In this document: positions 12,122 through 27,078 of the stretch, piece after piece
Numbering within the stretch: the stretch's first letter is position 1
How the letters are laid out: each line of letters starts with the position of its first letter
Origin: a virus
Lineage: Duplodnaviria > Caudoviricetes
Reading direction: 5' to 3' (one strand)
DNA length: 27,611 bases
Virus record (IMG/VR): IMGVR_UViG_3300027586_000039
Coordinates: 1-27,611 of that record
Made by a program: the position numbers and the translations under genes
Notes under the pieces: generated by a model
Database searches by the model: none
What the model saw: the letters and a program-made list of their open reading frames with translations, nothing else
Told to the model about the DNA's origin: nothing

Positions 12122-12149
12122 AAATCCTGAGCAAGATTTAAAACTGCTC
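12122..12149 (+). ncRNA. H-type pseudoknot motif PK copy 1
   Basis: AAAUC/GAUUU stem, loop CUGAGCAA, AAAAC linker, UGCUC pairs with GAGCA. Confidence 0.7.
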
Positions 12150-12166
12150 CACACTCAAAATTTTGG

Positions 12167-12355
12167 GACGTCGGGGTCGGGCGTGTCGTCCACAGACTTA
12201 TCCACAGGGCTATTCGTGTGAGATTTATCACATAGGCTGAGCGTCTCACTATTTGGACTTACTCGCTAGTAACTTGATAAATTGTGTGTAATAGGCTAAA
12301 CTTACATAGTAAGAAAAATAAATAAAAGTAATTTGTCAGACCCTAATGGTAGGAT
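12167..12355 (+). promoter_or_regulatory. Regulatory cassette
   Basis: GACGTC 12167; GGCGTGTCG; TTATCCACA 12198; CRP box 12217; GTCTCACTATTTGGAC 12243; TTACT-N4-AGTAA 12259; TGTCAG-N10-TAGGAT 12334-12355. Confidence 0.75.
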
Positions 12356-12387
12356 AGATTTATCAACAAAAAGAAAGAGGTTGGCAA

Positions 12388-12594
12388 ATGTCAGCAAATG
12401 TCTACACAATAGAACACCTACTTGTAGGAAAAATGTATTTCTCACGCACCTTGCAGGGAGAAATTATTTCAGCAGAAAAACACCCTAACGCAGTTTGGTA
12501 TAAAGATTGCGAAAGTTATCTAGTGGAAGTACGCCCTAGTAATTTTGGAAAAGTTACTTGCCGTACAGTAGCAGTAAAGGTACAGGATAACTAA
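12388..12594 (+). CDS. Hypothetical early protein
   Basis: AGAGGT SD; ORF track. Confidence 0.75.
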   Translation: MSANVYTIEHLLVGKMYFSRTLQGEIISAEKHPNAVWYKDCESYLVEVRPSNFGKVTCRTVAVKVQDN

Positions 12595-12716
12595 TGGGAT
12601 ACATAGAGATTTTTAGAATTGACAATGAGGGTGCAGGTTGGATAGACTTGGACAATGCAACACCTAGCGAATTGCTAGATTTAGAAATTGGACTATTTCA
12701 GGAAGGCGCTATCTAA
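12594..12716 (+). CDS. Small acidic protein (40 aa)
   Basis: MGYIEIFRIDNEGAGWIDL...; TAATG coupling. Confidence 0.65.
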   Translation: MGYIEIFRIDNEGAGWIDLDNATPSELLDLEIGLFQEGAI

Positions 12717-12868
12717 TGGGAGTAATGAAAGAATTGCACTTAGAGATAACTACTTGCGACTTATGCTATGGCACAGGTTGGCTACACTTTGGCAATAGCG
12801 AGGACTACGATACAGAGTCTTGCGATTGCAACCCACACCAATTATTTATCACTAAGGAGAATAACTAA
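12716..12868 (+). CDS. Small zinc-binding protein (50 aa)
   Basis: CDLCYGTG...CDC motif; TAATG coupling. Confidence 0.7.
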   Translation: MGVMKELHLEITTCDLCYGTGWLHFGNSEDYDTESCDCNPHQLFITKENN

Positions 12869-13089
12869 TGAATAATGAATACCTATACTCAGTAACTACT
12901 ACTAACGATAGCAACACCAAGCCCGATTGGGTTGGTCGCTACTCAGACGCACTAAGTGCCGTTGAAGTTTATCAACGATTTATTGACCACGGATTTGCTA
13001 ATGAATTTCGTACAGTAAATTTATCAGAGCCGTCAGGCAAAATGCATACAAAAATTCTGTATCGCTCAGGAATTGTGGGAGGTAAATAA
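12868..13089 (+). CDS. Hypothetical early protein
   Basis: AAGGAG SD; ORF track. Confidence 0.75.
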   Translation: MNNEYLYSVTTTNDSNTKPDWVGRYSDALSAVEVYQRFIDHGFANEFRTVNLSEPSGKMHTKILYRSGIVGGK

Positions 13090-13236
13090 ATGAATGGCTA
13101 TGAATTTAGAACCGCACTTGCAAAAATTGCACCCGACTATGCAATAGATAAAGATAACTATGGGCAAATAATTATCTACACTAATCTAATGGAAACCGAT
13201 AATGATGAATACACAGAATGGAAAGAGGATAACTAA
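13090..13236 (+). CDS. Hypothetical protein (48 aa)
   Basis: GGAGGT SD; DNYGQIIIYTNL motif. Confidence 0.65.
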   Translation: MNGYEFRTALAKIAPDYAIDKDNYGQIIIYTNLMETDNDEYTEWKEDN

Positions 13237-13508
13237 TGGGATCAGTTACAGCGCTAGGAATACAGGACTCAGTATTGGATTTAGAAACTCAGATTGCTTA
13301 TCACTTACAGGGTAATCACTATCCACCAGTACCGCTATCTATGGTGCAACCTTGCATAGATGCTATTGATGCATACTATGATGAGGACTACGATAAATTT
13401 ATTGCTATGCCTGAAGGCGTATTCTATAAGGGAATGAGCCACGCACCAGCAAGAGCAATAATTGAACAACACCACTTGGAATTTTGGCTACCAGAGTGGG
13501 AGGACTAA
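13236..13508 (+). CDS. Conserved-type actinophage hypothetical protein
   Basis: HL..NHYPPVP...C..AI...HHL pattern. Confidence 0.75.
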   Translation: MGSVTALGIQDSVLDLETQIAYHLQGNHYPPVPLSMVQPCIDAIDAYYDEDYDKFIAMPEGVFYKGMSHAPARAIIEQHHLEFWLPEWED

Positions 13509-13530
13509 ATTGTCTGATACAATGATTGCT

Positions 13531-13752
13531 ATGGATTTAGTACACGCAGACAACCTAACACCCGACCAATTGATGATTGGTGATTTAGTAAAAATTGGTG
13601 AGGACATCGTTGAAATTATTTTTATTGAAAGTGATTCAACGGGAGATAACTACGACATACAAACCGAAAATGAATTTGGTGAAAAAGAAGTAACACAGTA
13701 TAGTTATACTGATTCAATTTCTCTCTATGTTTTTATAGAGCAAGAGGAATAA
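13531..13752 (+). CDS. Small acidic SH3/beta-barrel-like protein
   Basis: L.IGDLV motif; likely leaderless from TGATACAAT 13515-13523. Confidence 0.65.
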   Translation: MDLVHADNLTPDQLMIGDLVKIGEDIVEIIFIESDSTGDNYDIQTENEFGEKEVTQYSYTDSISLYVFIEQEE

Positions 13753-13781
13753 TTTTTATGCACTTCCCCGCATAAAAATGC

Positions 13782-13963
13782 GACGTCGCGTTCGGGTGTG
13801 TCTGGGGATAACCTGTGGATAACTTTAGTCTACTGACCAGTAACCCCTATATAATTTCTTTACGAGGGACTTTTTTATTTCCCAGATCCTGGGCGAAAAA
13901 ATTTTTTTGTGATTTTAATCACACGATTTAGATTTGACATTTTTATGAGATGTGTGTTAGTAT
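13782..13963 (+). promoter_or_regulatory. Regulatory cassette
   Basis: GACGTC 13782; DnaA boxes 13803 (1 mismatch) and 13814; TACT-N4-AGTA 13831; TTACGA-N12-TTTCCC 13860; CRP box 13908; TTGACA-N18-TAGTAT. Confidence 0.75.
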
Positions 13964-13969
13964 TACTAT

Positions 13970-14119
13970 ATGAAGAAGACAAATGAGGAACTACGCAGGC
14001 TTATGGAACTACGCCGTAGCAACGCTGCCTCTGCCGTACCTTCAAAGAAAGCCTACAACCGTAGGAAATGTCAGTCTGAACTGCTACAATTGAAGAAATA
14101 CAAAGGAGACCCACTATGA
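13970..14119 (+). CDS. Small basic protein (49 aa)
   Basis: Leaderless; MKKTNEELRRLMELRRSNAASAVPSKKAYNRRK... Confidence 0.65.
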   Translation: MKKTNEELRRLMELRRSNAASAVPSKKAYNRRKCQSELLQLKKYKGDPL

Positions 14120-14292
14120 CCTATGAAAACGATGAAATGCTAGATGAGTACTACGCAACCGTCTGCCCCTCTTGCCGTGAAAATGCGGTAGATGAGTATG
14201 AGGATAAATGTACTCATTGCTTGCTAGAAGAAATGTCTTATACCTATAATGAAGACATTGCTCTAGAAATGAGTCTTGGACTTGACTACTAA
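14116..14292 (+). CDS. Small acidic zinc-ribbon protein (58 aa)
   Basis: AAGGAG SD; CPSC...CTHC; internal TGTCAG-N10-TACAAT promoter at 14069-14090. Confidence 0.7.
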   Translation: MTYENDEMLDEYYATVCPSCRENAVDEYEDKCTHCLLEEMSYTYNEDIALEMSLGLDY

Positions 14293-15022
14293 TACCCTCA
14301 CACTAAAACTAAAACGCTCTAATGATAGAAAGGTCGCTAATCTTGTTACAAAAAATGGAAAGCAAGCCGCAATCGCAAATACCTTTGGCCTACCTGCTGG
14401 AAAGGCTTTCTCGTGCCCTGGTGCCACTAGTATTTGTGAAAGCGTTTGCTACGCAGGAAAACTTGAAAAACTCTTCAAGGGTGTAAAGGCTAACCTATTA
14501 CACAATTGGGACCTGCTTAAGGACGCAGATCAATTAACTATGGAGACATTGTTAACTGAGATGATTAACGAATTCCGTGCAGACTGTGTAAAGAAAGACG
14601 CCCCTATGCTATTCCGTATTCACTGGGACGGAGATTTCTTTAATGATATATATACTAACGCCTGGAAGAATGTAATCACTAACAATCCTGATATTCAATT
14701 CTGGGTATACACTCGTGTGAAGAGTGCTGCTCTTATTCTTAAGGATGTATCTAATCTATCATTGTACTTTTCTGCAGATAGTGAGAATGTAAAAGTAGCG
14801 GTTGATCTAAAAATAAATAGCGGTGTTCGAATGGCATACCTTGCCAAAAACTTTGCTATTGGCCAGGCAGATGTAAAAGAAATGATAGGTCGCCCTGCTG
14901 CTAAGTGTCCTGAAAACAATAGACAAATTCCACTTATCTCAACCAAGGGTAGCGCTTGCGTTTCTTGCAGTTTATGTGTATACTCTAAGAGTGATATCAT
15001 ATTCAGTGCGAGCAAAAAATAA
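14282..15022 (+). CDS. GP88-like protein (mycobacteriophage gp88 family; Cys-cluster, radical-SAM-like)
   Basis: FGLPAG..SCPGAT..C...CYA, FRIHWDGDFF, FWVYTR, LYFSAD, C-terminal CP..C..C..C. Confidence 0.75.
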   Translation: MTTNTLTLKLKRSNDRKVANLVTKNGKQAAIANTFGLPAGKAFSCPGATSICESVCYAGKLEKLFKGVKANLLHNWDLLKDADQLTMETLLTEMINEFRADCVKKDAPMLFRIHWDGDFFNDIYTNAWKNVITNNPDIQFWVYTRVKSAALILKDVSNLSLYFSADSENVKVAVDLKINSGVRMAYLAKNFAIGQADVKEMIGRPAAKCPENNRQIPLISTKGSACVSCSLCVYSKSDIIFSASKK

Positions 15023-15091
15023 ATGAGCCTTTGGTTTTATTTACTAATGATTTTAATAGTAATGATTTCTATGTTAGGTGGTAGTGGCTGA
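15023..15091 (+). CDS. Possible hydrophobic micropeptide (22 aa)
   Basis: MSLWFYLLMILIVMISMLGGSG directly after the preceding stop. Confidence 0.35.
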   Translation: MSLWFYLLMILIVMISMLGGSG

Positions 15092-15107
15092 TCCCCTGAA
15101 AAAACGG

Positions 15108-15306
15108 GACGTCGGCATCACCCCTATTTGTCAAGCCGACACGCAGGCTTTATGATGTGATGTTTATCACACCCCGATTTGTAGGCTTGATTTGTATTTC
15201 TGGTATTTTTCTGCTACAATTATCTTATGAACAAAAAAACCAACCTAGTCCAAGATGTGAGATTTTTCTGGCATAATTTGTATTTGTCAGTAGGAAATGC
15301 TATACT
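15108..15306 (+). promoter_or_regulatory. Regulatory cassette with tandem promoters
   Basis: GACGTC 15108; CGACACGC 15137; CRP box 15156; TTGTAT-N17-TACAAT; TGTCAG-N10-TATACT 15285-15306. Confidence 0.75.
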
Positions 15307-15337
15307 TGGATTATCAACAAACAAAAGGAGAAACAAA

Positions 15338-15505
15338 ATGACAGTAAATACCGCAACATACAAGGTGGGCGACCTCTACACTTCACAGAAGTCAAAGGTA
15401 ACAGGCACAATCTTGGAAATCGCACCTAACAAGACAGGCGACGCAGTTCGTGTAAAGTTAGATGTAAATGGTAACACACGCTGGACAACTTGGACAGCAA
15501 AGTAA
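15338..15505 (+). CDS. Small SH3/KOW-like protein (55 aa)
   Basis: AAGGAG SD; YKVGD...GTI.EI pattern. Confidence 0.75.
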   Translation: MTVNTATYKVGDLYTSQKSKVTGTILEIAPNKTGDAVRVKLDVNGNTRWTTWTAK

Positions 15506-15556
15506 TCTAATTACTAAGTCGCCAATGTACAGCGACTCTAAATAAGTGGCAGGAAC

Positions 15557-15584
15557 TATCCTGAGCAAGATACTAAAAGGCTCA
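15557..15584 (+). ncRNA. PK copy 2
   Basis: UAUC/GAUA, loop CUGAGCAA, GCUCA pairs with UGAGC. Confidence 0.65.
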
Positions 15585-15590
15585 ACACAA

Positions 15591-15612
15591 TGTCAGACCC
15601 CTCCGCTATAAT
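15591..15612 (+). promoter_or_regulatory. PafBC/RecA-NDp-type promoter
   Basis: TGTCAG-N10-TATAAT. Confidence 0.75.
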
Positions 15613-15647
15613 AGAAACATAACCCACAAATAGAAAAGGAAATAAAA

Positions 15648-16070
15648 ATGGCTAGAGCCAAAGCAATAAATGTAAAAATCCCAACAGTACGAGTAATCGC
15701 AGGACTAGAGGAAGCACTTGCTACCCTAGAAGCAGACTACGCAACACAATCAGCAAAAGAAGCAAAGTACGAAATTGCTAAGAAGGCTTGGCAAAAAGAA
15801 GTTCAGGACTTCGCTATCGCAAACATCAGCAAGGCAGAAAACTTCCGCACTAACTTCCGTGCTTGGTCAAACAATCTCAACATTGACTTTGACTTGACAG
15901 TATTAGAAAAGGACTTGCCTAAAGAGCCTGAGCAGGACTACGAAGTAATCCATCAGCACACTTATCGTGAGTCAAAGAAAGAAATCACAAACGCAATTCG
16001 TCTGCTAAAGATGACAGATGAGGAAGTCGTTAGCACTTCTACTTACAACGCAATCGCACAGTATCTCTAA
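15648..16070 (+). CDS. Hypothetical helical protein (140 aa)
   Basis: GAAAAGGA SD; ORF track. Confidence 0.85.
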   Translation: MARAKAINVKIPTVRVIAGLEEALATLEADYATQSAKEAKYEIAKKAWQKEVQDFAIANISKAENFRTNFRAWSNNLNIDFDLTVLEKDLPKEPEQDYEVIHQHTYRESKKEITNAIRLLKMTDEEVVSTSTYNAIAQYL

Positions 16071-16079
16071 TTAGATACA

Positions 16080-16290
16080 CAACCTGAGTAGGTTGATAAA
16101 CTGCTCACACAACTAAATAAGGTTAGGGCAAGGGGTTCAGAGCCTCTCCTAATTCGCCAGGCTGATTAGGGCGATCACAGAAATACTATAGAGCGTCTAC
16201 CCCCTAGACTGGATGGGGGACCAGTTCACACCAACTGTCAAATGAGGTGTAACTACCTGAGTAAGTATCAAAACTGCTCCCCGCAAGGGC
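16080..16290 (+). ncRNA. Structured non-coding segment containing PK copies 3 (16080-16107) and 4 (16254-16279)
   Basis: Consecutive hairpins and pseudoknots; no plausible sense ORF. Confidence 0.6.
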
Positions 16291-16291
16291 C

Positions 16292-16321
16292 TTGACAAAT
16301 GTCAGTGCCTAGTAGTACAAT
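16292..16321 (+). promoter_or_regulatory. Dual SigA / PafBC-type promoter
   Basis: TTGACA-N18-TACAAT containing TGTCAG-N10-TACAAT. Confidence 0.75.
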
Positions 16322-16355
16322 TGAACTAACCAACAAACAGAAAGAGGCACCCCTC

Positions 16356-16775
16356 GTGGAACAAGATAAAATAACAGTAGTAAATGCAACAGAAGACTTT
16401 CTTCGTGACTCACTAGCCAAAGCAACATTGCGTGTTGCAGAACTAGAGGAGCACATCTCTCGTGTAACTCAGCGCTCATATGGTGAGGCTGCAGAGCGTA
16501 ATCGTATGCGTAATGAAATGCAAGAGTGGACATTGGAAGCACTTGATTGCGGGACCCTGAACGAATCAGAAGCACAAGAAATTGCAGACATCTGTGGTTT
16601 TGAACTAACAAAAGAGTTTGAACTAGATGTCACAGTTATGTATTCAATTACAGTGAATGCACGGAATGAAGAGGACGCACACTCTGCAGTTAGCGATATT
16701 GATTTTGATTCAGTGTCATATAATGATGACGCAATCAAATATTTATCTTCAAGTGTGGATTCAATCGATTCATAA
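16356..16775 (+). CDS. Hypothetical acidic protein
   Basis: GAGG SD before GTG 16356; C-terminal V.V.A.NEE.A pattern. Confidence 0.8.
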   Translation: MEQDKITVVNATEDFLRDSLAKATLRVAELEEHISRVTQRSYGEAAERNRMRNEMQEWTLEALDCGTLNESEAQEIADICGFELTKEFELDVTVMYSITVNARNEEDAHSAVSDIDFDSVSYNDDAIKYLSSSVDSIDS

Positions 16776-16792
16776 ATTTCCTGTGAGGGGAA

Positions 16793-16821
16793 TACATCCT
16801 AAGCACGATGTAAAACTGCTT
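16793..16821 (+). ncRNA. PK copy 5 (compensatory variant)
   Basis: UACAUC/GAUGUA; loop CUAAGCAC; UGCUU pairs with AAGCA. Confidence 0.7.
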
Positions 16822-16842
16822 TAACTTTTCCCTCAAAATTTT

Positions 16843-16968
16843 GACGTCCCGCTGACCAGTCATTGTCAAGTCGACACGCCGTTTACGATAGGTGATCTTC
16901 ACCACAATGTCCGATTTATCCATATCTAACTATCCCGATTTGCATATGTCAGTCAGTCCTGCTATACT
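16843..16968 (+). promoter_or_regulatory. Regulatory cassette
   Basis: GACGTC 16843; CGACACGCCG 16872; degenerate CRP box 16891; ATGTCCGATTT 16907; TGTCAG-N10-TATACT 16947-16968. Confidence 0.75.
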
Positions 16969-17000
16969 TGAAATATCAACACAACAGAAAGAAGGAAATC

Positions 17001-18014
17001 GTGGCTCACGAACTAGAAACACAAAACGGCGTTGCATCTTTTGCATCATTCCGTGAACCTGCTTGGCACGGATTGGGAACAGTCTTTACCGAGGAAAAAA
17101 CAACAGCAGAAATGCTATCATTAGCAAATCTTGATGGGTGGAATGTTCGCCTAGAGGATTTGGAAACACCTACACATCTCACAAGCGACAAGAATTACCA
17201 ATATGTCTTGCGTACAAATCCTACCGATACAACTCAGACCGACATTCTTGGTGTCGTTGGTGAGCGTTATCACCCAATGCAGAATGAAGATTTATTTTCA
17301 TTTGGCGATAACATTCTAGATGGTGGTGGTCGTTGGGAGACTGCTGGTTCAATCAAGGGTGGTCGTGTCGTGTTCGGTGCACTAGCACTAGAGCGTGAAA
17401 CAATTCTTGACCCTACTGGTGTTGCAGACAAGGTAAAAACTTATTTGCTCATCAACACATCACACGATGGTTCTATTGCAATTCAAGCAAGCATCACACC
17501 CGTTCGTGTTGTGTGCGCTAACACTCTCAATCTTGCACTCAATACAACACGCAAAAAGGGTGGCGTAAAGCAATCATTCAAGATTCGCCACACACAAACT
17601 GCAAGCGGTAAGGTTGCCGTTGCTCGTGAGACTCTTGGTATGGCTCATAAGTATATGGATTCTTTTGATGTTATGGCTAACGCTATGATTCAACAAGAAG
17701 TTTCTGCTAAGATGTTCAACGACATTATTCTTGCTGCATATCCAAAGCCTGAAAAGGATACTAAGGGTGCGCTAAAGAAATGGGAAAACAAAGTAGATGT
17801 CATCAACGATATTTACACAGGCGAGTTCAATGGTATGATTGCTGGTAATGCGTGGGGTGCGTTCAATGCGCTAACCGAACGCCTTGACTGGTATCGTTCT
17901 GCTCGTGGTGGTTCTAACGAATCCATTCTCGCAAGCGCAAGCGGTTTTGACCCTGCTATCACCGCAGAAAAAAATCGCTTACTAAAAATTGTGCGTGAAC
18001 TAACTAACGCATAA
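17001..18014 (+). CDS. DUF932 / phage-plasmid-like protein (TIGR03299-like)
   Basis: MAHELE...PAWHGLG...LGVVG.RY..QN...ETAGS..GG..VF...SHDGS...TPVRVVCANTL...IRHT...WGAFNA.TE..D; GTG start after AAGGA. Confidence 0.9.
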   Translation: MAHELETQNGVASFASFREPAWHGLGTVFTEEKTTAEMLSLANLDGWNVRLEDLETPTHLTSDKNYQYVLRTNPTDTTQTDILGVVGERYHPMQNEDLFSFGDNILDGGGRWETAGSIKGGRVVFGALALERETILDPTGVADKVKTYLLINTSHDGSIAIQASITPVRVVCANTLNLALNTTRKKGGVKQSFKIRHTQTASGKVAVARETLGMAHKYMDSFDVMANAMIQQEVSAKMFNDIILAAYPKPEKDTKGALKKWENKVDVINDIYTGEFNGMIAGNAWGAFNALTERLDWYRSARGGSNESILASASGFDPAITAEKNRLLKIVRELTNA

Positions 18015-18032
18015 TAAAAAAACTAAATAAAG

Positions 18033-18059
18033 ATTCCTGAGCAAGAATAAAAACTGCTC
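18033..18059 (+). ncRNA. PK copy 6
   Basis: AUUC/GAAU; loop CUGAGCAA; UGCUC; ends 4 nt before tRNA-Asp. Confidence 0.7.
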
Positions 18060-18063
18060 GCAA

Positions 18064-18137
18064 GGTTCCATAGATCAATTGGTTAGATCGCTACCCTGTC
18101 ACGGTAGAGGCTACGGGTTCAAGTCCCGTTGGAATCG
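18064..18137 (+). tRNA. trnD: tRNA-Asp(GTC)
   Basis: Acceptor GGTTCCA/TGGAATC, anticodon arm CTACC-CTGTCAC-GGTAG, GTTCAAGT T-loop; no encoded CCA. Confidence 0.95.
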
Positions 18138-18175
18138 CAATAAATAAAAATGCAATGCAATGCATAAAAATTTCG

Positions 18176-18314
18176 GACGTCGGCTGTGACCTGCATCACA
18201 TAACATTTTTGATAAAATAACTTTACGATAGGGTGATATTTTTCCCAGAATTTCTTTACGATAGGCAAAAATTTTTCCCCAAACCTTGCATTTGTCAGTC
18301 CCCTAGGCTATAAT
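18176..18314 (+). promoter_or_regulatory. Regulatory cassette
   Basis: GACGTC 18176; CRP box 18185; two TTACGA-N12-TTTCCC; TTGCAT plus TGTCAG-N10-TATAAT 18293-18314. Confidence 0.75.
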
Positions 18315-18320
18315 TAAAAT

Positions 18321-18539
18321 ATGACAAAACAAGTGGCAATATATGAAATGAACTACTCCTGCTCTCCTGGTGGCGTTGACTGCTGGGAAGCAACTATTCA
18401 AGGTTATGGTACTAGTACTACTGGCTCTGACTTTAAGACTGCTGGAGAGGCTCTTAATTGGGTGCTTGACAGATACCCTGACGAAATGCTAGAATTAGTA
18501 GTAACATCACTCCCAGCCTACGAAAAGGAATATGTATGA
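18321..18539 (+). CDS. Hypothetical protein
   Basis: Leaderless, 6 nt after TATAAT. Confidence 0.75.
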   Translation: MTKQVAIYEMNYSCSPGGVDCWEATIQGYGTSTTGSDFKTAGEALNWVLDRYPDEMLELVVTSLPAYEKEYV

Positions 18540-19291: not shown

Positions 19292-19295
19292 TACT

Positions 19296-20474: not shown

Positions 20475-20830
20475 TGGGAGCACGGATCAACTTTGTCTTT
20501 AAAGACTCTGAGAAGGGCCCTGTAGTAGTACTCTACAGTCATTGGGGCCAAGACGGATGGGAAAGAGATCTTGCAGCAGCGCTGCAGCATTCTAAGCCAA
20601 GGTGGGGAGATTCTTCATATGGCACCCGTATGATGATTAGTTATCTTATTCAGCACAGCATTCTAGATGAGACAGGTTTTGGAATTTATGCAATCGACCA
20701 AGACGGTTACGACCTAGGGGAGCAGACAGTGCTCATCGACTTTACTAACAAAACTATTACTGATAATGTGTCAGTCGGTTGGGACCTATTTGTGGCCGCG
20801 TATAGACCAGTTTTAATGGAGCAGATCTAG
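20474..20830 (+). CDS. Conserved-type phage hypothetical protein
   Basis: MGAR.N...LYSHWG...RW.D..Y..R pattern. Confidence 0.8.
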   Translation: MGARINFVFKDSEKGPVVVLYSHWGQDGWERDLAAALQHSKPRWGDSSYGTRMMISYLIQHSILDETGFGIYAIDQDGYDLGEQTVLIDFTNKTITDNVSVGWDLFVAAYRPVLMEQI

Positions 20831-20928
20831 GGAGTGGGTCCCCTAGACTAATAACGAGTGGGGCGTAGGGTTTTTGCCTACCTTGCGCCCCCTCAACTTT
20901 TTTGGTACAATGGAGTAAGGGAGGGACT

Positions 20929-21168
20929 ATGGCTTATTCAATTAGACGAACGGCAACCCATAATAAAGAAACAAAAGTAGCAGAACAATTAGGCAGACTC
21001 CTTACCCAAGATTTTGCGGTAGATTTAGAAAGAGTAGGATTTTACTTAGTAAGAAACCTACCACTAATAAATTACCACAGATTTGAGGTTTTAGGGTTGA
21101 CAGCAATGGAAGAGTATGATAAACTTATGTTAGAGATGAAAGGACCACAAAATGGATTTCGCAGATAA
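20929..21168 (+). CDS. Hypothetical protein
   Basis: GGAGG SD, TGGTACAAT upstream. Confidence 0.75.
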   Translation: MAYSIRRTATHNKETKVAEQLGRLLTQDFAVDLERVGFYLVRNLPLINYHRFEVLGLTAMEEYDKLMLEMKGPQNGFRR

Positions 21169-21457
21169 AGCAGGCATAATGGCAACGCTATGGCTGGAGT
21201 TCAAAGAGGACGAGGACTTTAGTGCGTTTGTAGATTACAACGACATTGGATTGCCTTTAGCCTATTGCCAAGCAAATGGTTTGGTAAAGGAAACAACTCC
21301 ACTAGGAGAGCAATATATTTTAGAAACAACAAGTATGTTTTTTGATTTGTTGGAGATTACAGAGGCAGAGGTTGATGAGTTAGAGGACCAATCACTAACC
21401 GCAATCCTGTTGTTTGGATACAACAAGAAAAACCCTAAAGAGACGCTTCCAGAGTAA
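21152..21457 (+). CDS. Hypothetical acidic protein
   Basis: F..F..YND.GLPLAY motif; AAGGA SD. Confidence 0.8.
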   Translation: MDFADKAGIMATLWLEFKEDEDFSAFVDYNDIGLPLAYCQANGLVKETTPLGEQYILETTSMFFDLLEITEAEVDELEDQSLTAILLFGYNKKNPKETLPE

Positions 21458-21765
21458 CTATCTTATCCTTGATCCCTGGGCTTGACAAAAGCCTGGGGCT
21501 ATGGGACGTCAGACGTCAAATCATATCAAATCGGACATAACAGACAAACCATGTTTTTTGCAAAAGAAGATTACGAAGGACGAATTCTTTTCCCCATACC
21601 AGGGGTATTACGATGGAGCAATTCTTTTCCCCGTACCAGGCATATTGACAAACCATATTTTCTACAAAATAAGATTACGAAGAGCGATTTCTTTTCCCCG
21701 TACCAAACCTTATACCATACAAACCTTTATATGTCAAACCTTTATATCGGGTGTATAATATATAT

Positions 21766-21972
21766 ATGAGTCCAAGACACTTTGCAGCATATGCTAAAAG
21801 AGATCCTAAAGGATATCAAACCTTTTCTGATTCTATGTGGAACTCCTTTGTATCTATTACTCATACTATAGGTTTGTCTAACTATTTTTCTTTTACCCCC
21901 GACTTTTTGGGCAAGGGCGCGGCGCTTGATCCAACGGCGCCAGAGCGCGGGACACAAGAAGAGACAAACTAA
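21766..21972 (+). CDS. Hypothetical protein (68 aa)
   Basis: Leaderless after TATAAT; lies inside the repeat locus. Confidence 0.5.
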   Translation: MSPRHFAAYAKRDPKGYQTFSDSMWNSFVSITHTIGLSNYFSFTPDFLGKGAALDPTAPERGTQEETN

Positions 21973-22110
21973 TACCCTATATACAATGACAAACCTTGTC
22001 TCCTGGTTTTCTTTATTTTTTAAATAAATAACAAACCTTTATATATTTTTATTACGAAATTCGAATAAATTTCCCTGGTTTTGGGGATTTTTTTTATGCA
22101 TAAAATGGGC

Positions 22111-22139
22111 TTGACAAACCTTGTTTCAAGGTGTATAAT
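22111..22139 (+). promoter_or_regulatory. Consensus SigA promoter
   Basis: TTGACA-N17-TATAAT; a second promoter TTGACA-N17-TATCAT at 22162-22190. Confidence 0.75.
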
Positions 22140-22329
22140 GCCCAAACAATGCATATGAGGTTTGACAAATAGGGTTTGATATGCTATCATATCGGGGCTA
22201 TGAAGGTTTGGGGATATGAGGTTTGGCCCCAGGGATTACGAACGCCTTCTTAAAAGGGCTCCATACTCCACTATCCTCCACAACACTCCACTTCTACCCT
22301 ATCTAATAATATTATCAGTAAGATTAATC

Positions 22330-22382
22330 TGTGGATAAACCTGTGGATAACTAACATTTTCACGGTATTGACATGTGGATAA
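22330..22382. promoter_or_regulatory. Three perfect DnaA boxes
   Basis: TGTGGATAA at 22330, 22342 and 22374; the last lies inside the TTGACA-N17-TATCCT promoter spacer. Confidence 0.8.
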
Positions 22383-22402
22383 CTGTGTGATATCCTGGAT
22401 AT

Positions 22403-22546
22403 ATGAACGAACTATTCTGGTATAGCCGTCAACTAAAAGAAGCCGTATCTACTACTGCTATGGAAAATGGTTGGAACGATGCCAAGTGCAAAGAAGTATT
22501 TGATGAACTTATGGAAAAATATCTAGTATCTAAGGATCTAAAATGA
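22403..22546 (+). CDS. Hypothetical protein (47 aa)
   Basis: Leaderless; manual translation. Confidence 0.6.
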   Translation: MNELFWYSRQLKEAVSTTAMENGWNDAKCKEVFDELMEKYLVSKDLK

Positions 22547-22665
22547 GTGATGCAATGTGTACTAAATATGGATGCGACTATCAATTAGACCTTGATGGTC
22601 AAGTGACCTGTTCTAATTGTGGGGCTATGGATGATGACATGACAAACCCTAATGTGATAGAATAG
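22543..22665 (+). CDS. Small zinc-ribbon-like protein (40 aa)
   Basis: C....C...CSNCG; AAGGA SD, ATGA overlap. Confidence 0.6.
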   Translation: MSDAMCTKYGCDYQLDLDGQVTCSNCGAMDDDMTNPNVIE

Positions 22666-22669
22666 TATA

Positions 22670-22855
22670 ATGGAAATAATTGCACTACTAGTGGTCTGGT
22701 ATGGTTGTAAGGTATATTACACAAAAACCTTTAAACTCTCAATCCCTACTTCAGATCCAAACCTTGTACAGATTCAATGCCATAAGTGTGCTCAAACCGT
22801 AGTAACCCATAGAGACAATCTCCGTGCCCCATTCTACTGTTTGGCATGCAAGTAA
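22670..22855 (+). CDS. Membrane-anchored zinc-ribbon protein
   Basis: Hydrophobic N-terminus; CHKC...CLAC. Confidence 0.65.
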   Translation: MEIIALLVVWYGCKVYYTKTFKLSIPTSDPNLVQIQCHKCAQTVVTHRDNLRAPFYCLACK

Positions 22856-22858
22856 GTC

Positions 22859-22996
22859 ATGGATAAATTAGAGTCCTCTTGGAGTCTGTATGCTAAGAAG
22901 ATTGATTCTTATAGGGTAGCCTGTAGCCAATGTGATCAACTATATGTAAAGGCTAATGATGAGCCTTTTGTATGTCTTACCTGTGCTGCTAAATAA
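22859..22996 (+). CDS. Small zinc-ribbon protein (45 aa)
   Basis: CSQC...CLTC. Confidence 0.6.
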   Translation: MDKLESSWSLYAKKIDSYRVACSQCDQLYVKANDEPFVCLTCAAK

Positions 22997-22997
22997 A

Positions 22998-23324
22998 TCA
23001 GGGGATATCAAGACTCTTAATTGCCTTGTTGACCATACGGATCAAACCTCTTCGAGTTATCTTCGATGCATCAAATGTCTCCGTATAACCCCCTTGTGGC
23101 ATATCCGACTTATCCAGAAAAGACCCATGCTTCTTAGTAAGTGTTTGTACTACTAGGGATTCTATTGCTCTTGCTTTATCCCGCTCAAAAAAATGCCAAT
23201 ATTTTATCAGTATCCAACCCTTGGTCCTATGGGCTGCAAACCTTCTACCTGAGATATCTGATATACCTATCTTAATAGCCTTGTGTACTGGGCTATAGAG
23301 TATGTATAGGACTGCTTCGTTCAT
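22998..23324 (-). CDS. GIY-YIG-like (T5orf172/MUG113-type) nuclease
   Basis: LYIL...IKIGIS...RR...H...A..IE...GGYTETF; leaderless ATG 23324. Confidence 0.75.
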   Translation of the reverse strand: MNEAVLYILYSPVHKAIKIGISDISGRRFAAHRTKGWILIKYWHFFERDKARAIESLVVQTLTKKHGSFLDKSDMPQGGYTETFDASKITRRGLIRMVNKAIKSLDIP

Positions 23325-23372
23325 GCATCTATTATACTTGACATACCGTGCTAATTTTGCTATACTTGTATT

Positions 23373-23531
23373 ATGCACATATTCAGAGTATCTCTACTAG
23401 ATTACGCAACGGCATTTGATCTTGATATCTTTGCCTCAACTGAGAAAGAAGCCAGAGCAATGGCACAAGCAGAAGAACCTAAAATGAACATTACGAAAGT
23501 GGTTTGTCTAACCACTATTGAGGCTATATGA
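23373..23531 (+). CDS. Hypothetical protein (52 aa)
   Basis: Leaderless after TTGACA-N17-TATACT. Confidence 0.65.
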   Translation: MHIFRVSLLDYATAFDLDIFASTEKEARAMAQAEEPKMNITKVVCLTTIEAI

Positions 23532-23671
23532 ACAACGAAGAGATAGCAGCGCTATTAGATAAAGAGTCCTATAGGGTTTGGGACACCGCCAAAGTGATCA
23601 AGAACCAAGACTACCACGATGGTCTGGTTAAGGGTTTGAAGATGGCTGCTAAGTATGTGGCTAAACTATGA
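23528..23671 (+). CDS. Hypothetical protein (47 aa)
   Basis: GAGG SD; ATGA overlap. Confidence 0.6.
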   Translation: MNNEEIAALLDKESYRVWDTAKVIKNQDYHDGLVKGLKMAAKYVAKL

Positions 23672-23778
23672 AACCTGAGCAATGTCTCAAGTGCAAGATG
23701 ATAGTTAAAGATCCCTTGTTTTGGGAGACTCATCAGACAATGACAGATGGCAAGGTGTGGTGTGCTAAGAAACTTTGA
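23668..23778 (+). CDS. Small Cys/His protein (36 aa)
   Basis: CLKC...H...C; ATGA overlap. Confidence 0.5.
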   Translation: MKPEQCLKCKMIVKDPLFWETHQTMTDGKVWCAKKL

Positions 23779-23971
23779 AATCCCAGATCCATTTCAAACC
23801 TTTGTAGCCAAGAAATATGCCAACTATAAAGGTATGGTCTATGATTTTTTTGCCAAAGAATGGTATCTCAAAACAGCCTGTTGTGGGGAAGAACTTTATG
23901 CTCCAAACAAAAAGACCATGAATAAGATTCGCCTATACCATACAAGAAATGAGTGCTTAGGTGGATATTGA
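23762..23971 (+). CDS. Hypothetical protein
   Basis: ORF track; GTG start after AAGGT. Confidence 0.65.
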   Translation: MLRNFEIPDPFQTFVAKKYANYKGMVYDFFAKEWYLKTACCGEELYAPNKKTMNKIRLYHTRNECLGGY

Positions 23972-24209
23972 TGAGTTTATGAAAGACCCCTGGAAACCTT
24001 TTAATGATATGAGGAACACTCCACACGAGTGTGATTACGATTACAGGGTAGATCCCTCTGGTGCTATGTTCTTTGAGATATGTAAACTATGCCTTGACAC
24101 TAAGGGTGTTATTGAGATAGATAAAAAATGTAGCCATACTTGGTATATGCGTGAAGATGGTATACAATGTACTAAGTGCTTGATTTTATGGGAAAAGGAT
24201 ATGGACTAG
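23961..24209 (+). CDS. Cys/His-rich hypothetical protein
   Basis: CKLC, C.H.W...CTKC. Confidence 0.65.
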   Translation: MDIDEFMKDPWKPFNDMRNTPHECDYDYRVDPSGAMFFEICKLCLDTKGVIEIDKKCSHTWYMREDGIQCTKCLILWEKDMD

Positions 24210-24814
24210 GATTGCCAGTCTATCTGCTCATCCTCATAAGGAGTAAACCAGATTATTAAACAGTCTCTATCACCTTCAGAAACCTTCTTTAGGCCGTGCC
24301 ATGTATTAGATGGGAACATAACTAACTCTTGTCCTATAGGCTTATACACAATACCACCCATGTCCTCAGTATATAGATCAAAATCTGTTTTAGTTGTGTG
24401 ATGATCTAAAAATATTAATTCTCCATCTTTAAAGTCACCATTGAGATATGCTATAGCAGTATACATTTTACTATCCTGATCGTAATCCCTGTGAATAAGA
24501 ATTTGTATTCCTGGCGTAAGCCTTTGAATTGATACCTTAACAGCATACAAAGATTCTTTAAGTTTATAGAAGTCTTTAAGACTATTAGCCATTCTTTCGG
24601 CATATGTTTCTATTAAAGGCTTGATGTTTAGGTATTCACTTGGCCTATTTGTTGTAGGAAACAAAGCCCTGTATGTTATTCCTTCTTTGTGTGCTATGCC
24701 TAACTTTTGTGTAAATAGTGATGTTTCTTTATTCTTGCTAATATAATCCCTGATACCCTGGCATTCTTCTGATGTCAAAAAGTCTTGAACAATATTTAAA
24801 TCATCTTTTATCAC
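24206..24814 (-). CDS. 2OG-Fe(II) oxygenase
   Basis: HRD...AYLNGDFKDGEL.F...FPS...HG...V..G.R. Confidence 0.85.
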   Translation of the reverse strand: MIKDDLNIVQDFLTSEECQGIRDYISKNKETSLFTQKLGIAHKEGITYRALFPTTNRPSEYLNIKPLIETYAERMANSLKDFYKLKESLYAVKVSIQRLTPGIQILIHRDYDQDSKMYTAIAYLNGDFKDGELIFLDHHTTKTDFDLYTEDMGGIVYKPIGQELVMFPSNTWHGLKKVSEGDRDCLIIWFTPYEDEQIDWQS

Positions 24815-24889
24815 AACAGCCTCCAGGGTTAGATTATCATTATATCACTGCTTCTTGACTTATAAGGCTCAGTGATGTATAATGAATAT

Positions 24890-25006
24890 ATGAAAGAACC
24901 TAAGATTATGCAAATGGACTGGAAAGCACTAGGATATGAAAGGATGTATGTAGATGGAAAACTCAGATGGGTTCCTCAGCAAGTCAAAGACGATTCAGAA
25001 GACTAG
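24890..25006 (+). CDS. Hypothetical protein (38 aa)
   Basis: Leaderless after TTGACT-N16/17-TATAAT-like promoter. Confidence 0.55.
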   Translation: MKEPKIMQMDWKALGYERMYVDGKLRWVPQQVKDDSED

Positions 25007-25334
25007 GATACTACCATTACGATGGATCGGTAATTTTCTTGGTTCCTATGCTGGTAATCATTTAGTTAAATGTTTTGATTATGATGAAGATGGTAAGTAT
25101 GGATTTGCTTATAAATACCACGCAAAATGCTGGAAGTATCTTAATAAGCCTTATGAGTGGTGGGGTACTTGCTACCAACTTGATATAGAGGGTATGATAA
25201 AAGATTTAGATGGTGCAGGCTGGGATGATTACGATAAAGATGGTATTCCATATTGGGAAAAATGGGAAGACGAAGGTGGTCCTGTAGATAATTCAGAAGA
25301 AAGATTAAAGTATATGGAGGATAATGGGATATGA
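24954..25334 (+). CDS. Hypothetical aromatic/acidic protein
   Basis: GAAAGGA SD; ORF track. Confidence 0.7.
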   Translation: MENSDGFLSKSKTIQKTRILPLRWIGNFLGSYAGNHLVKCFDYDEDGKYGFAYKYHAKCWKYLNKPYEWWGTCYQLDIEGMIKDLDGAGWDDYDKDGIPYWEKWEDEGGPVDNSEERLKYMEDNGI

Positions 25335-25435
25335 GTCGAACCATAGTGTGTCCTGTATGTAAGAAAGAATGGGATTTTAGAGTAGGCTTTGCTCACGAGA
25401 GCCTATACAAGCATATGAAGGCAGATCACCGATAG
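25331..25435 (+). CDS. C2H2-like zinc-finger micro-protein (34 aa)
   Basis: CPVC...LYKHMKADH. Confidence 0.6.
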   Translation: MSRTIVCPVCKKEWDFRVGFAHESLYKHMKADHR

Positions 25436-25529
25436 TGCCCGTTTAGGGCATAGAGTGGTTTAAGAACCTCTATTTTGCGCCGAACTTTAAAGACTTGACA
25501 ACATATCCGCCGAATGGTACAATATATAT

Positions 25530-25736
25530 ATGACTACTTTTAGTAAATTTGTATTTTTTATCAATATGGCCTTAGTGCCATTAACTACTTTTTTTGCTGG
25601 ATATGCAGCAAACGATACCAATGTAAACCAATATAAAGTAGGATTTTTTATATTGGTAGCAGTTGTTAACCTTATGTCTGCTGTTGGATATGTTCGTGCA
25701 AACTATGTTCAGACAGAGATTCAATATGAGCATTGA
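25530..25736 (+). CDS. Two-TM membrane protein
   Basis: Leaderless after TTGACA-N17-TACAAT; two hydrophobic helices. Confidence 0.7.
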   Translation: MTTFSKFVFFINMALVPLTTFFAGYAANDTNVNQYKVGFFILVAVVNLMSAVGYVRANYVQTEIQYEH

Positions 25737-25899
25737 TGAAATGATGCTTAGGGAAGAGATAGCAAGAGAGATTGAAGCCCTTCCTATTGAATCATCATTG
25801 ACAAATGCATTTGGTATGCGCCTTGCTGCTGCCCATATAGCAAGAGGAAAAGATAATTATATTACTAAAATGTTTGAAAATCAGGTTGATTTCGAGTAA
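25726..25899 (+). CDS. Hypothetical protein (57 aa)
   Basis: LREEIAREIE...AA.IARG pattern common in actinophage small ORFs. Confidence 0.7.
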   Translation: MSIDEMMLREEIAREIEALPIESSLTNAFGMRLAAAHIARGKDNYITKMFENQVDFE

Positions 25900-25926
25900 T
25901 CTTGAATATGCTATAATGTATTTACT

Positions 25927-26055
25927 ATGAAAGATAATCATCCCTGCTATTATTGCAAAAAAGAAGCACTGTACACACAGTTAGTCGGAACTCCTGGCAA
26001 CTATTTTGTATCTAATGTATGTAAAGACCATCTTATGATGGGCTTGTCTTCCTAA
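25927..26055 (+). CDS. Small zinc-binding protein (42 aa)
   Basis: CYYC...CKDH; TGCTATAAT upstream. Confidence 0.6.
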   Translation: MKDNHPCYYCKKEALYTQLVGTPGNYFVSNVCKDHLMMGLSS

Positions 26056-26078
26056 AGAAACTATGGTATCCTTAAGAT

Positions 26079-26201
26079 ATGAAAACAACTTATAAATGTC
26101 CAGAGTGTGCAACATCTATTACTATTAATACTAAGGTTCATGAACTACCCGAATCTATTATTTGTCCCTGCGAAGCCGTGATGCCTAATACATCCAAGTA
26201 G
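26079..26201 (+). CDS. Small zinc-ribbon protein (40 aa)
   Basis: CPEC...CPC; leaderless. Confidence 0.6.
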   Translation: MKTTYKCPECATSITINTKVHELPESIICPCEAVMPNTSK

Positions 26202-26360
26202 ATGGAAGAAGAAAAAGTAAGGGCCATGTTTGAGTTGGCCAGTAAATTAGACAAATTTCAATTAGTTTTACTTAACAAGTGTGAGGTTTGTGGTCCAATC
26301 TTGCGTGGTGCAGACAAATCTAGGTATCCAAAGTGTAAGAGACACGATGACCTATACTGA
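26202..26360 (+). CDS. Hypothetical protein (52 aa)
   Basis: CEVC...C..H; immediately follows the previous stop. Confidence 0.45.
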   Translation: MEEEKVRAMFELASKLDKFQLVLLNKCEVCGPILRGADKSRYPKCKRHDDLY

Positions 26361-26715
26361 TCCAGAAAAAAATGCTTTAGCAAAAGCCCTGTGGTACCAA
26401 AGAAATAAAGAACTTCAGCGGGTAAGACTTCAGCAAAGAAGATCTCAAAAAAGACAATATGTTCACGACATCAAGGAGGCTAACCCTACTTGCACTGATT
26501 GTGGTATTGACTATCCTTGGTATTGTCTTGACTTTGATCATCTCCCCGAATTTAAAAAATCTTTTGCTTTGAGTAGTACTGGTATGAGAGATAAAACTAT
26601 GGAGCAAATTTTAGAAGAGATAACCAAGTGTGAGATTGTTTGTTCTAATTGTCACAGACATAGAACAGAGATGCGTAAAATGGAAAAAAGAGTTAGCAAG
26701 GATAGGCACCAGTAG
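26347..26715 (+). CDS. HNH endonuclease
   Basis: CTDCG...LDFDH...EI.KCEIVCSNCHR.RT. Confidence 0.85.
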   Translation: MTYTDPEKNALAKALWYQRNKELQRVRLQQRRSQKRQYVHDIKEANPTCTDCGIDYPWYCLDFDHLPEFKKSFALSSTGMRDKTMEQILEEITKCEIVCSNCHRHRTEMRKMEKRVSKDRHQ

Positions 26716-26779
26716 CCAAGTTGGTTAAGGCACCGAACTCATAATTCGGCTATCGTAGGTTCAAGTCCTACCTGGTGTA
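26706..26779 (+). tRNA. tRNA with CAT anticodon (elongator Met or Ile2)
   Basis: GCACCAG/CTGGTGT acceptor; CCGAA-CTCATAA-TTCGG; paired 1:72 and no GGG/CCC anticodon stem, so not an initiator. Confidence 0.92.
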
Positions 26780-26783
26780 CTCT

Positions 26784-26855
26784 GTCTCCATCGTCTATCG
26801 GCTAGGACAACGCCCTTTCACGGCGTAAAGACGGGTTCAATTCCCGTTGGAGATA
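26784..26855 (+). tRNA. trnE: tRNA-Glu(TTC)
   Basis: GTCTCCA/TGGAGAT; ACGCC-CTTTCAC-GGCGT. Confidence 0.93.
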
Positions 26856-26859
26856 CTAC

Positions 26860-26931
26860 ACCTCTGTAACTCAGTGGAAGAGTAGCGGACTTCTAATCCG
26901 TTTGTCGATGGTTCGAATCCATTCAGGGGTA
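26860..26931 (+). tRNA. trnR: tRNA-Arg(TCT)
   Basis: ACCTCTG/CAGGGGT; GCGGA-CTTCTAA-TCCGT. Confidence 0.92.
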
Positions 26932-26960
26932 CTATTAAAACTAAGTAGTATAATATATAC

Positions 26961-27078
26961 TATTCCGCAACACATATCCCCTAGGGATTTTTGAAACGGA
27001 TGCTCTTATGAGAAGAGAGTTGGCAGGAGTTGAGTCTTCGTGGCCAATAGACCTGAGCAGTAGTCTATAAACTGCTCA
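26961..27078 (+). ncRNA. Putative ~120-nt structured RNA ending in PK copy 7
   Basis: TATAAT at 26949-26954; successive hairpins; terminal pseudoknot 27047-27078. Confidence 0.55.

Follow-up and report, generated by a model that had tools for sequence, protein, structure and literature searches.

Which RNA structure recurs between the genes of a freshwater phage, and what might it do there? The window, by which we mean the whole stretch of DNA analysed, is an entire freshwater phage contig of 27,611 nt (IMG/VR record IMGVR_UViG_3300027586_000039). Its plus strand carries seven copies of an H-type pseudoknot of 27–31 nt (hereafter the knot), in which stem S1 encloses loop L1 and one arm of stem S2, and a linker, L3, leads from the second arm of S1 (S1') to the second arm of S2. 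An earlier note, made from the sequence alone, had listed seven copies, and its positions are exact. A strict scripted scan of the window gives seven hits on the plus strand and none on the minus strand, compared with a mean of 0.41 and a maximum of 3 for both strands together in 300 dinucleotide shuffles. A looser scan adds two poor look-alikes, at 2184 (+) and 12877 (−), and the 8-mer CCTRAGYA occurs 12 times in the window where 3.6 occurrences are expected. Covariance model R1, built from 85 copies from other phages and two window copies, recovers the same seven with scores of 23.1–47.5 bits (E 6e-6 to 5e-14), the next match reaching 8.5 bits.

The S1 arms of all seven copies are identical to those in the earlier note, which had also placed four copies within 20 nt of a stop codon; the distances are 8, 9, 17 and 18 nt. 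Copy 1 (12122–12149; S1 AAAUC/GAUUU, loop CUGAGCAA, linker AAAAC; 47.5 bits) begins 8 nt past the stop at 12113, copy 3 (16080–16106; S1 CAAC/GUUG; 41.8 bits) 9 nt past the stop at 16070, and copy 5 (16793–16821; S1 UACAUC/GAUGUA; 38.1 bits) 17 nt past the stop at 16775. Copy 6 (18033–18059; S1 AUUC/GAAU; 41.3 bits) begins 18 nt past the DUF932 gene, whose stop is at 18014, and its last base lies 4 nt short of the 5' end of tRNA-Asp (18064–18138, +), as had been noted; the order DUF932 gene, knot, tRNA-Asp is kept in relatives. S2 is GAGCA/UGCUC in copies 1, 6 and 7, and the deviations from it that had been read as compensatory change and wobble are present: copy 5 has AAGCA/UGCUU, a compensatory A-U pair, and copies 3 and 4 have GAGUA/UGCUC with a G-U wobble. 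Copy 2 has a variant 3' box, AAAAGGCUC, so that its GAGCA faces GCUC in a 4-bp S2; this subtype recurs in four copies from other phages. With regard to plausible genes all copies are intergenic, the overlapping open reading frames (ORFs) being short and probably spurious.

The remaining three copies have more varied surroundings. Copy 2 (15557–15583; S1 UAUC/GAUA; 23.1 bits) lies 51 nt past the stop at 15505 and about 9 nt upstream of a promoter-like TGTCAG-N10-TATAAT; in relatives the knot follows the stop after about 12 nt. The 51-nt spacer between the stop of this small gene and knot 2 (15506–15556) contains a 6-bp hairpin, AGUCGC...GCGACU, which is absent from relatives (joint 15502 to 15556 in a DNA run, loose ends at 15517). 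Copy 4 (16254–16279; S1 UAC/GUA; 32.3 bits) is preceded by a 147-nt stretch without ORFs and followed directly by a hairpin, CCC-GCAA-GGG, and then by a promoter-like TTGACA-18-TACAAT (16292–16321). Copy 7 (27047–27077; S1 AUAGAC/GUCUAU, 3-nt junction GUA; 39.2 bits) stands 115 nt past a tRNA cluster, where it converges with a minus-strand gene (27083–27520) whose end is 6 nt away.

The claim that other copies close structured RNAs holds in part, and does not extend to the 147-nt stretch between copies 3 and 4 (16107–16253), which folds no better than shuffles (z 0.07). This candidate small RNA has no Rfam match; within the region, depth in RNA-library contigs from three runs is greatest at its core (about 16127–16194). 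Knot 7, with the same S1 and 3-nt junction, is near-identical in at least seven other contigs (L002, L003, L046, L061, L070, L086 and L102), and at least 8 nt before it, the extent of flank compared, are conserved in them as well, the window differing at one base. This suggests a larger conserved RNA (26990–27077) that follows the tRNA cluster and ends in knot 7.

Across phages the fold is highly constrained everywhere except in S1. This stem comprises 3–7 bp of free sequence and is closed by an invariant C-G pair (87 of 87 seed rows, 103 of 104 model matches), below which an A-U or U-A pair is found in about 92% of cases. S2 reads RAGYA/UGCUY, L1 is CU, and a junction of one base (A, U or C) is the rule, with 3–11 nt tolerated. 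The A-rich L3 ends in an invariant AAAC; A22, A23, A24, C25 and U26 are invariant in alignment A1. Insertions occur only at the 5' end of L3, and all length changes fall between S1' and AAAC. S1' plus linker amount to 10 nt in most copies, and the spacing of the two boxes is nearly constant.

Both stems vary in the way expected of paired RNA. S1 has at least 3 bp in 142 of 146 pattern matches and its sequence differs widely, although the search pattern ignores S1. When the 3' partners are permuted among copies (500 trials), a mean of 42 and a maximum of 59 reach this length, indicating that the pattern matches are not due to chance. Model R1 found 104 copies in 964 kb of flanking sequence from 73 loci. 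On the alignment of these copies, in which S1 was modelled as pairs and S2 as sequence only, 96.6% of the cells pair, compared with 79.3% in shuffles, and S2 cells are paired in 98.3%. S2 pair 1 is G-C in 77 copies, A-U in 17, G-U in 5 and another combination in 5; pair 4 is C-G in 78, U-G in 24 and U-A in 2. In a scan that leaves the last base of S2 free, a loop G is met by C in 95 copies, U in 8 and A in 1, and a loop A by U in 15, C in 1 and A in 3 (Fisher p 2e-12, with copies counted regardless of relatedness). Rare compensated variants of S2 also occur (AGGCA/UGUCU, AAACA/UGUUA, GAGUA/UACUC).

The gene upstream has the same sense as the knot in 90 of 101 classifiable copies. Together with the G-U wobbles, which on the other strand would be A-C mismatches, this argues for a knot formed by the sense strand rather than for a DNA operator, and the earlier preference for RNA is thus borne out by wobbles and compensatory changes in both stems. 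Judged by this pattern of variation, the element is an RNA, or at least a sense-strand, H-type pseudoknot whose two stems covary. Nested-only folding, a type of calculation that cannot decide the knot fold, gives S1 or S2 alone for each copy, and the energies are weak (−4.4 to −10.8 kcal/mol), as a knot would lead one to expect.

How widespread is the knot? The pattern CCTGAGCA-N4-14-AAACTGCTC matches 134 stretches in two of the 64 parts of IMG/VR, giving an estimate of about 5,400, and a pattern that fixes neither R nor Y nor the last position of S2 matches 136 stretches in one of the 64 parts, giving about 10,000. The carriers form 123 contig groups, just 14 of which share proteins with the window, and no protein family is found within ±10 kb of the knots in more than 14 of the 123 groups. 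Bacterial genome contigs yield 121 pattern matches, of which 44 have an S1 of at least 3 bp and 36 the usual 24-nt spacing. About 30 of the 121 look genuine and the rest look like chance; the genuine-looking contigs are filed under Firmicutes, Saccharibacteria, Chloroflexi, Cyanobacteria, Proteobacteria and others. The absence of a common protein in the flanks and the spread of carriers over many phyla fit a protein-independent device.

Among cultured phages, Cyanophage S-RIM4 has one clear copy (45610–45644 of MK493321; 44.8 bits), 10 nt past the stop of a coding sequence and 28 nt before the next start. This was the only site confirmed by the model among the 12 records that a 35-nt blastn query of copy 1 returned from named phages; sites in Salmonella and Flavobacterium phages lie inside genes and were dropped as chance. 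The one giant-virus contig in the scans (L058/L230) lacks S1 and was left out of the count.

The knot matches no catalogued RNA family that we searched. In agreement with the earlier note, which named no matching family, no Rfam 15 family reaches its gathering score (in the window only tRNAs and chance matches are reported), and no match to the motif appears at E ≤ 10 over 15540–16840, a region with four copies. We found no description of the motif in the literature searched. The part of PMC10690425 (10,006 viral candidate RNAs) that was covered does not mention it, and its boxes are absent from six supplement files of that paper, with three others outside the comparison; the portion of the Minerva preprint covered describes other elements. 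The knot thus appears, from its sequence, to be of the compact triplex-knot kind, in a variant absent from Rfam and not found in print.

Several known elements that the earlier note had brought up, or that the fold calls to mind, do not fit. Kinship with preQ1-I riboswitches finds no backing, since the RF00522 model is not matched and Rfam gives nothing at E ≤ 10; the copies also follow genes rather than lead queuosine genes. A type III antitoxin or toxin decoy is not supported, given the dispersal of copies with different stems and the lack of a common neighbouring protein family. Whereas ToxI-like arrays consist of tandem, near-identical repeats, the window copies lie 148 to about 9,000 nt apart and each has a different S1. 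No toxin-like family is found among 33 ORFs compared with PHROGs or 13 ORFs compared with Pfam, no search aimed at ToxN having been made. Nor is an efficient terminator supported, given a tRNA 4 nt past one copy, the lack of a conserved U-tract and RNA-library contigs that continue beyond the knot. None of 16 terminator-like sites coincides with a knot on the plus strand (a minus-strand site, 15563–15550, overlaps S1 of copy 2), and T accounts for 14–45% of bases at positions +1 to +9 past the knot, A being nearly as common. A programmed −1 frameshift signal was rejected because a stop codon, not a slippery site, lies at least 5 nt upstream and the codons before it vary, although no systematic slippery-site scan was made.

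Across carriers the position of the knot relative to the preceding gene follows a sharp rule. We examined 98 copies with a long upstream open frame and measured the gap between the stop codon and the initial C of CCUGAGCA. No copy has a gap of 1–7 nt, 23 have exactly 8 nt and 62 have 8–13 nt. With a second ORF rule, 69 of 108 copies begin less than 20 nt past a stop on the same strand, none at 0–4 nt and 14 at exactly 5 nt from a 4-bp S1. A distance of 5 nt past the A-site codon is where downstream structure meets the entry channel of the ribosome, and it is the shortest spacer of frameshift signals. The 5-nt floor between stop and S1 therefore suggests that the knot abuts the terminating ribosome and is not melted by it.

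What follows the knot is less uniform. The distance to the next start codon is broad, its fullest bin (20–29 nt) holding 17 copies. Eighteen of 155 copies end 4–13 nt before a tRNA on the same strand and none lies within 30 nt after one; 14 of these 18 precede the tRNA-Asp of the window's own lineage and hence are not independent. Copy 7 and 10 of 101 classified copies elsewhere stand at convergent gene ends, where their own strand carries nothing further downstream. A promoter-like site directly follows two of the window copies, and transcripts from those promoters would not include the knots. The knot is tied to the upstream unit, not to the downstream one.

The same association is seen in inheritance. 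When the window is compared with 21 related loci, 20 homology blocks end in or at knots and one starts there, against a background of 0.39 ends per 38-nt window. Eleven of the blocks terminate in or at copy 3, and block ends often coincide exactly with the last base of S2 (12149, 16106–16110, 16279, 18059). Among pairs of instances with an identical knot, 11 share the upstream flank only and two the downstream flank only. Three records, from RNA- and DNA-library contigs of relatives, resemble the window as far as 15584, where copy 2 has its 3' edge, and no further. That homology ends at the 3' edges of knots and upstream flanks are shared indicates that the inherited module is 'gene plus knot'. 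One relative, an RNA-library contig, joins 15584 to 16290 and thus has no cassette between copies 2 and 4; the joint drops a 140-aa gene and the ORF-less stretch. As with the promoter-early stem-loop (PeSL) cassettes of T4-type phages, the joint represents gain or loss of a cassette by exchange between knots.

The sequence past the knot is A/C-rich and poorly structured. A occupies position +1 after S2 in 67% of copies, G does not exceed 12% over +1 to +9, and of 203 copies 28 have ACC after S2 and 17 have ACCA. Folding over the next 30 nt is weaker than in adjacent stretches, and a hairpin starting 0–3 nt past the knot occurs in 19 of 197 copies, compared with 23–35 at ten control offsets. 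RNA-library contigs contain the upstream gene together with the knot. In two of three RNA runs there is no cover between copy 2 and the start of the next gene, where a DNA run continues; this gap is a weak hint in favour of a message end at the knot. No pile-ups of starts or ends were seen in the metatranscriptome runs, which consist of contigs and so cannot show RNA ends.

Stem-loop structures at the 3' ends of bacterial and phage messages, among them repetitive extragenic palindromic (REP) elements and terminator hairpins, are known stabilisers, and stable RNAs end in a duplex plus CCA. The knot is like them in lying just past the stop, in belonging to the upstream message and in having an A/C-rich tail like that of tRNA ends. 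It differs from them as a knot of conserved sequence differs from a GC-rich hairpin, and for the knot a block to 3' exonucleases is only proposed here. Compact frameshift knots of the luteovirus type are also H-type: their L1 has two nucleotides, the first of them C, a single base forms the junction, and an A-rich L3 is able to lie in the minor groove of S1. They too are separated by no fewer than 5 nt from the codon that occupies the ribosomal A site. Nearly every base of the phage knot outside S1 is conserved, as expected if all of them make tertiary contacts; base triples with C in the major groove and AAA in the minor groove are predicted. The luteovirus −1 frameshift knots of beet western yellows virus (BWYV) and potato leafroll virus (PLRV), both named in the covered part of PMC10321173, follow slippery heptamers, whereas the phage knot follows stop codons and has no overlapping frame; its S2 has 5 bp rather than 3, and many copies occur per genome.

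The nearest known exonuclease-blocking RNA is coremin (xrRNA-C), an exonuclease-resistant RNA (xrRNA) of beny-, cucumo- and other eukaryotic RNA viruses, with its Watson-Crick variant xrRNA-WCC; our comparison draws on the covered parts of PMC6546385, PMC10520033 and PMC10321173. According to these, coremin requires a loop-closing C-G pair (PMC6546385), and mutational data show that its spacer is sensitive at the 3' end and tolerates insertions at the 5' end (PMC6546385). A second hairpin (hp2) directly past the spacer is needed for resistance to the 5'-to-3' exonuclease Xrn1 (PMC6546385, PMC10321173) and is dispensable for the effect of a coremin-type knot on ribosomes (PMC10321173). The coremin loop has the consensus YGAD or YGNNAD, with a resistant heptaloop, CGAGUAA, and an octaloop reported (same three papers).

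The phage knot shares with coremin, as portrayed in those parts, a short hairpin with a required closing C-G, a loop that starts with a pyrimidine and contains G-A, an A-rich spacer with AAACU whose end pairs with the loop (GAG/CUC in xrRNA-WCC), and tandem or multiple copies in intergenic regions. It differs in its 8-nt loop, CUGAGCAW, in which Y is first and G only third (the coremin papers allow larger loops), and in a full 5-bp Watson-Crick S2. Its carriers are DNA phages of bacteria, it is tied to an upstream stop codon, and the second hairpin that is obligatory in coremin is not enriched. Since that hairpin is no commoner than chance, we do not file the phage element as a member of coremin.

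A further comparison is offered by PeSL cassettes (PMC2839356, covered in part), in which, likewise, short regulatory units recur between the small non-essential genes of a variable region, with a gene-end structure followed by a sigma-70-like promoter and with recombination between copies that shuffles cassettes. The phage structure differs in being a conserved pseudoknot, not a terminator stem-loop; only two of the seven window copies abut a promoter, and the motif is common to unrelated phages.

Which function do these observations favour? Our leading reading, put forward tentatively and with somewhat less than even confidence, is that the knot is a compact 3'-boundary cap that blocks 3'-to-5' exonucleases and stabilises the upstream message. 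It is preferred on account of the position of the knot, its co-inheritance, its placement before promoters and at convergent ends, and its tail resembling that of stable RNAs. Long phage transcripts would be cut in the G-poor single-stranded stretch past the knot or, where a tRNA follows 4–13 nt later, by RNase P; at copy 6, an RNase P cut at the 5' end of tRNA-Asp would leave the knot as the 3' end of the upstream message. Exonucleases would then trim back to the knot and be halted by the knot together with its A/ACC(A) tail, similar to the 3' end of a stable RNA. With the stop codon at least 5 nt from S1, a terminating ribosome would reach the knot without unfolding it. Of the functions the earlier note had proposed, 3'-end protection or processing fits best, given position, co-inheritance with the upstream gene and the 3' flank.

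Several points weigh against such a cap. The fold class, represented by coremin and the luteovirus frameshift knots, experimentally resists motors moving 5' to 3', not 3' exonucleases, according to the covered parts of PMC6546385, PMC10520033 and PMC10321173. A 5-bp AU-rich S2 would be a weak obstacle from the 3' side, and an ordinary GC hairpin would serve as a 3' block, which leaves the strict conservation unexplained. About one third of the copies are not near the stop of a long ORF, and the 17 copies at 20–29 nt before a start codon would also fit a role in a leader. RNA-library contigs of relatives continue through the knot into other downstream sequence, so that at least some transcripts continue. 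The counts for co-inheritance, moreover, are dominated by one lineage, and they set coding against non-coding flanks.

The principal rival turns the direction around. A barrier of the coremin type, stalling RNase J, scanning RNase E or, in giant-virus hosts, Xrn1, would act as a firebreak that spares the RNA downstream; the RNase J roadblock of the earlier note survives in this form, which we consider rather unlikely. It draws on the features shared with coremin and its Watson-Crick variant as far as the papers were covered (required closing C-G, spacer AAACU, insertions confined to the spacer's 5' end, GAG/CUC helix), on the H-type architecture with an A-rich L3 and on the copies shortly before start codons. 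One RNA-library contig starts exactly at the 5' edge of copy 2, although assemblies can also break at a conserved element and so produce such a start. The barrier does not sit well with a knot anchored to and inherited with the upstream unit, with knots upstream of promoters or at convergent ends where nothing follows, or with copies 4 nt before a tRNA, which would be discarded with the leader; the missing enrichment of the second hairpin that coremin needs against Xrn1 speaks against it too. The sharp 5-nt floor, with the mode of the distribution at the floor, could instead mean that the knot is a bumper or insulator for ribosomes. Placed at the leading edge of the stop-codon ribosome, it would block read-through or sliding after termination and uncouple upstream translation from the next gene, promoter region, tRNA or small RNA. 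The floor equals the spacer of frameshift-stimulating knots, the element is linked to the upstream ORF, and ribosomes are universal, matching the breadth of hosts. Even without their second hairpin, coremin-type knots act on ribosomes, stalling those that scan and stimulating frameshifting (PMC10321173, in the part covered). We nevertheless regard this role as improbable, because copies occur without a preceding ORF (copy 4 behind its ORF-less stretch, copy 7 behind tRNAs, and about one third elsewhere), reading of the upstream codons shows no conserved slippery sequence before the stops, and no clear benefit is apparent; the floor may mean only that the knot must not be melted.

Two further explanations appear considerably weaker. 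The stacked S2–S1 helix, with U(−1), G(+1)-C, A and CCA, might mimic a tRNA acceptor and be read by RNase P or another tRNA enzyme that cuts or marks the transcript. L1 ends in U, S2 starts with G-C (or A-U), an A usually follows S2, the frequency of ACCA is far above a rough composition estimate, copies adjoin tRNA genes, and the tRNA-like ends of the turnip yellow mosaic virus (TYMV) type use the same knot topology. This is very unlikely all the same, as ACCA is present in only 8% of copies, the stacked helix has 9–10 bp without a T-arm, and the window's tRNA-Asp does not itself encode CCA. A TYMV-type tRNA-like structure proper was rejected on the rarity of ACCA and on an element of 27–31 nt without further arms, and neither ARAGORN nor the Rfam tRNA model calls the knot copies as tRNA. 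Finally, the boxes might act as DNA, as crossover points for gene cassettes in the manner of PeSL, or on RNA polymerase as a pause or termination signal, which we consider the least probable of these readings. The joint 15584 to 16290 at a knot, the breaks in homology at knot edges and the two copies followed by sigma-70-like promoters, an order that recalls PeSL, would agree with recombination; exchange at a shared 24-nt box can, however, be a by-product. The G-U wobbles, the sense-strand bias and the free covariation of S1 argue for RNA, and a pause or termination signal is hard to reconcile with the lack of a U-tract and with a copy 4 nt before a tRNA.

The contig around the knots encodes tail-fibre-like genes at its left end (minus strand) and many small plus-strand ORFs, together with a GP88-family protein, the DUF932 protein, an HNH endonuclease and four tRNAs. 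It is present in DNA runs of freshwater and lake metagenomes. Megablast and blastn of the region reveal no close relative among named phages; the DUF932 and GP88-family proteins match actinophages at about 50–55% identity, and the 140-aa protein of the region has no match. The HNH-endonuclease ORF (26281–26715) ends inside the first base pairs of tRNA-Met, which heads the Met-Glu-Arg tRNA cluster (26706–26932), and three ORFs resembling 2OG-Fe(II) oxygenases are scattered over the contig (6846–7469, +; 24206–24814, −; 27083–27520, −).

Two other intergenic elements recur. A promoter-like unit, (A/T)TGTCAG followed after 10 nt by TAnnnT, is found at 12333–12360, 15590–15625, 16292–16321, 16939–16968 and 18292–18320; it sometimes overlaps TTGACA-17/18-TAnAAT, precedes plus-strand genes, usually downstream of a knot, and may represent a phage-specific promoter class. 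GACGTCG boxes, followed by GC-rich repeats and the DnaA-box-like TTATCCACA / TGTGGATAA, lie at 12160–12215, 13780–13830, 15105–15125, 16843–16870 and 18173–18195, and are conserved downstream of knots in related contigs (e.g., the L142, L151, L170 and L196 flanks).

If the 3'-boundary function holds, phages of many host phyla would share one tiny RNA device that sets the end and lifetime of a message. The annotation of phage operons would change, a very large family would be added to RNA catalogues, and a link would be drawn from the RNA biology of bacterial viruses to the knots with which eukaryotic RNA viruses resist exonucleases or induce frameshifting; synthetic biology would also gain an insulator or stabiliser of 27 nt. 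The stop-codon spacing rule (never less than 5 nt to S1) provides a testable handle on how the ribosome meets downstream RNA structure at termination. A broader and more doubtful proposal is that DNA viruses use this 27-nt triplex knot universally, and independently of any protein, as an 'RNA punctuation mark'; set behind thousands of phage genes as the phage counterpart of coremin xrRNA, it would serve as a two-way mechanical stop for message ends, ribosomes and exonucleases and as a crossover point for gene cassettes. Were this true, the knot would be among the commonest structured RNAs of the virosphere, so far uncatalogued, and exonuclease-resistant RNA would not be an invention of eukaryotic RNA viruses.

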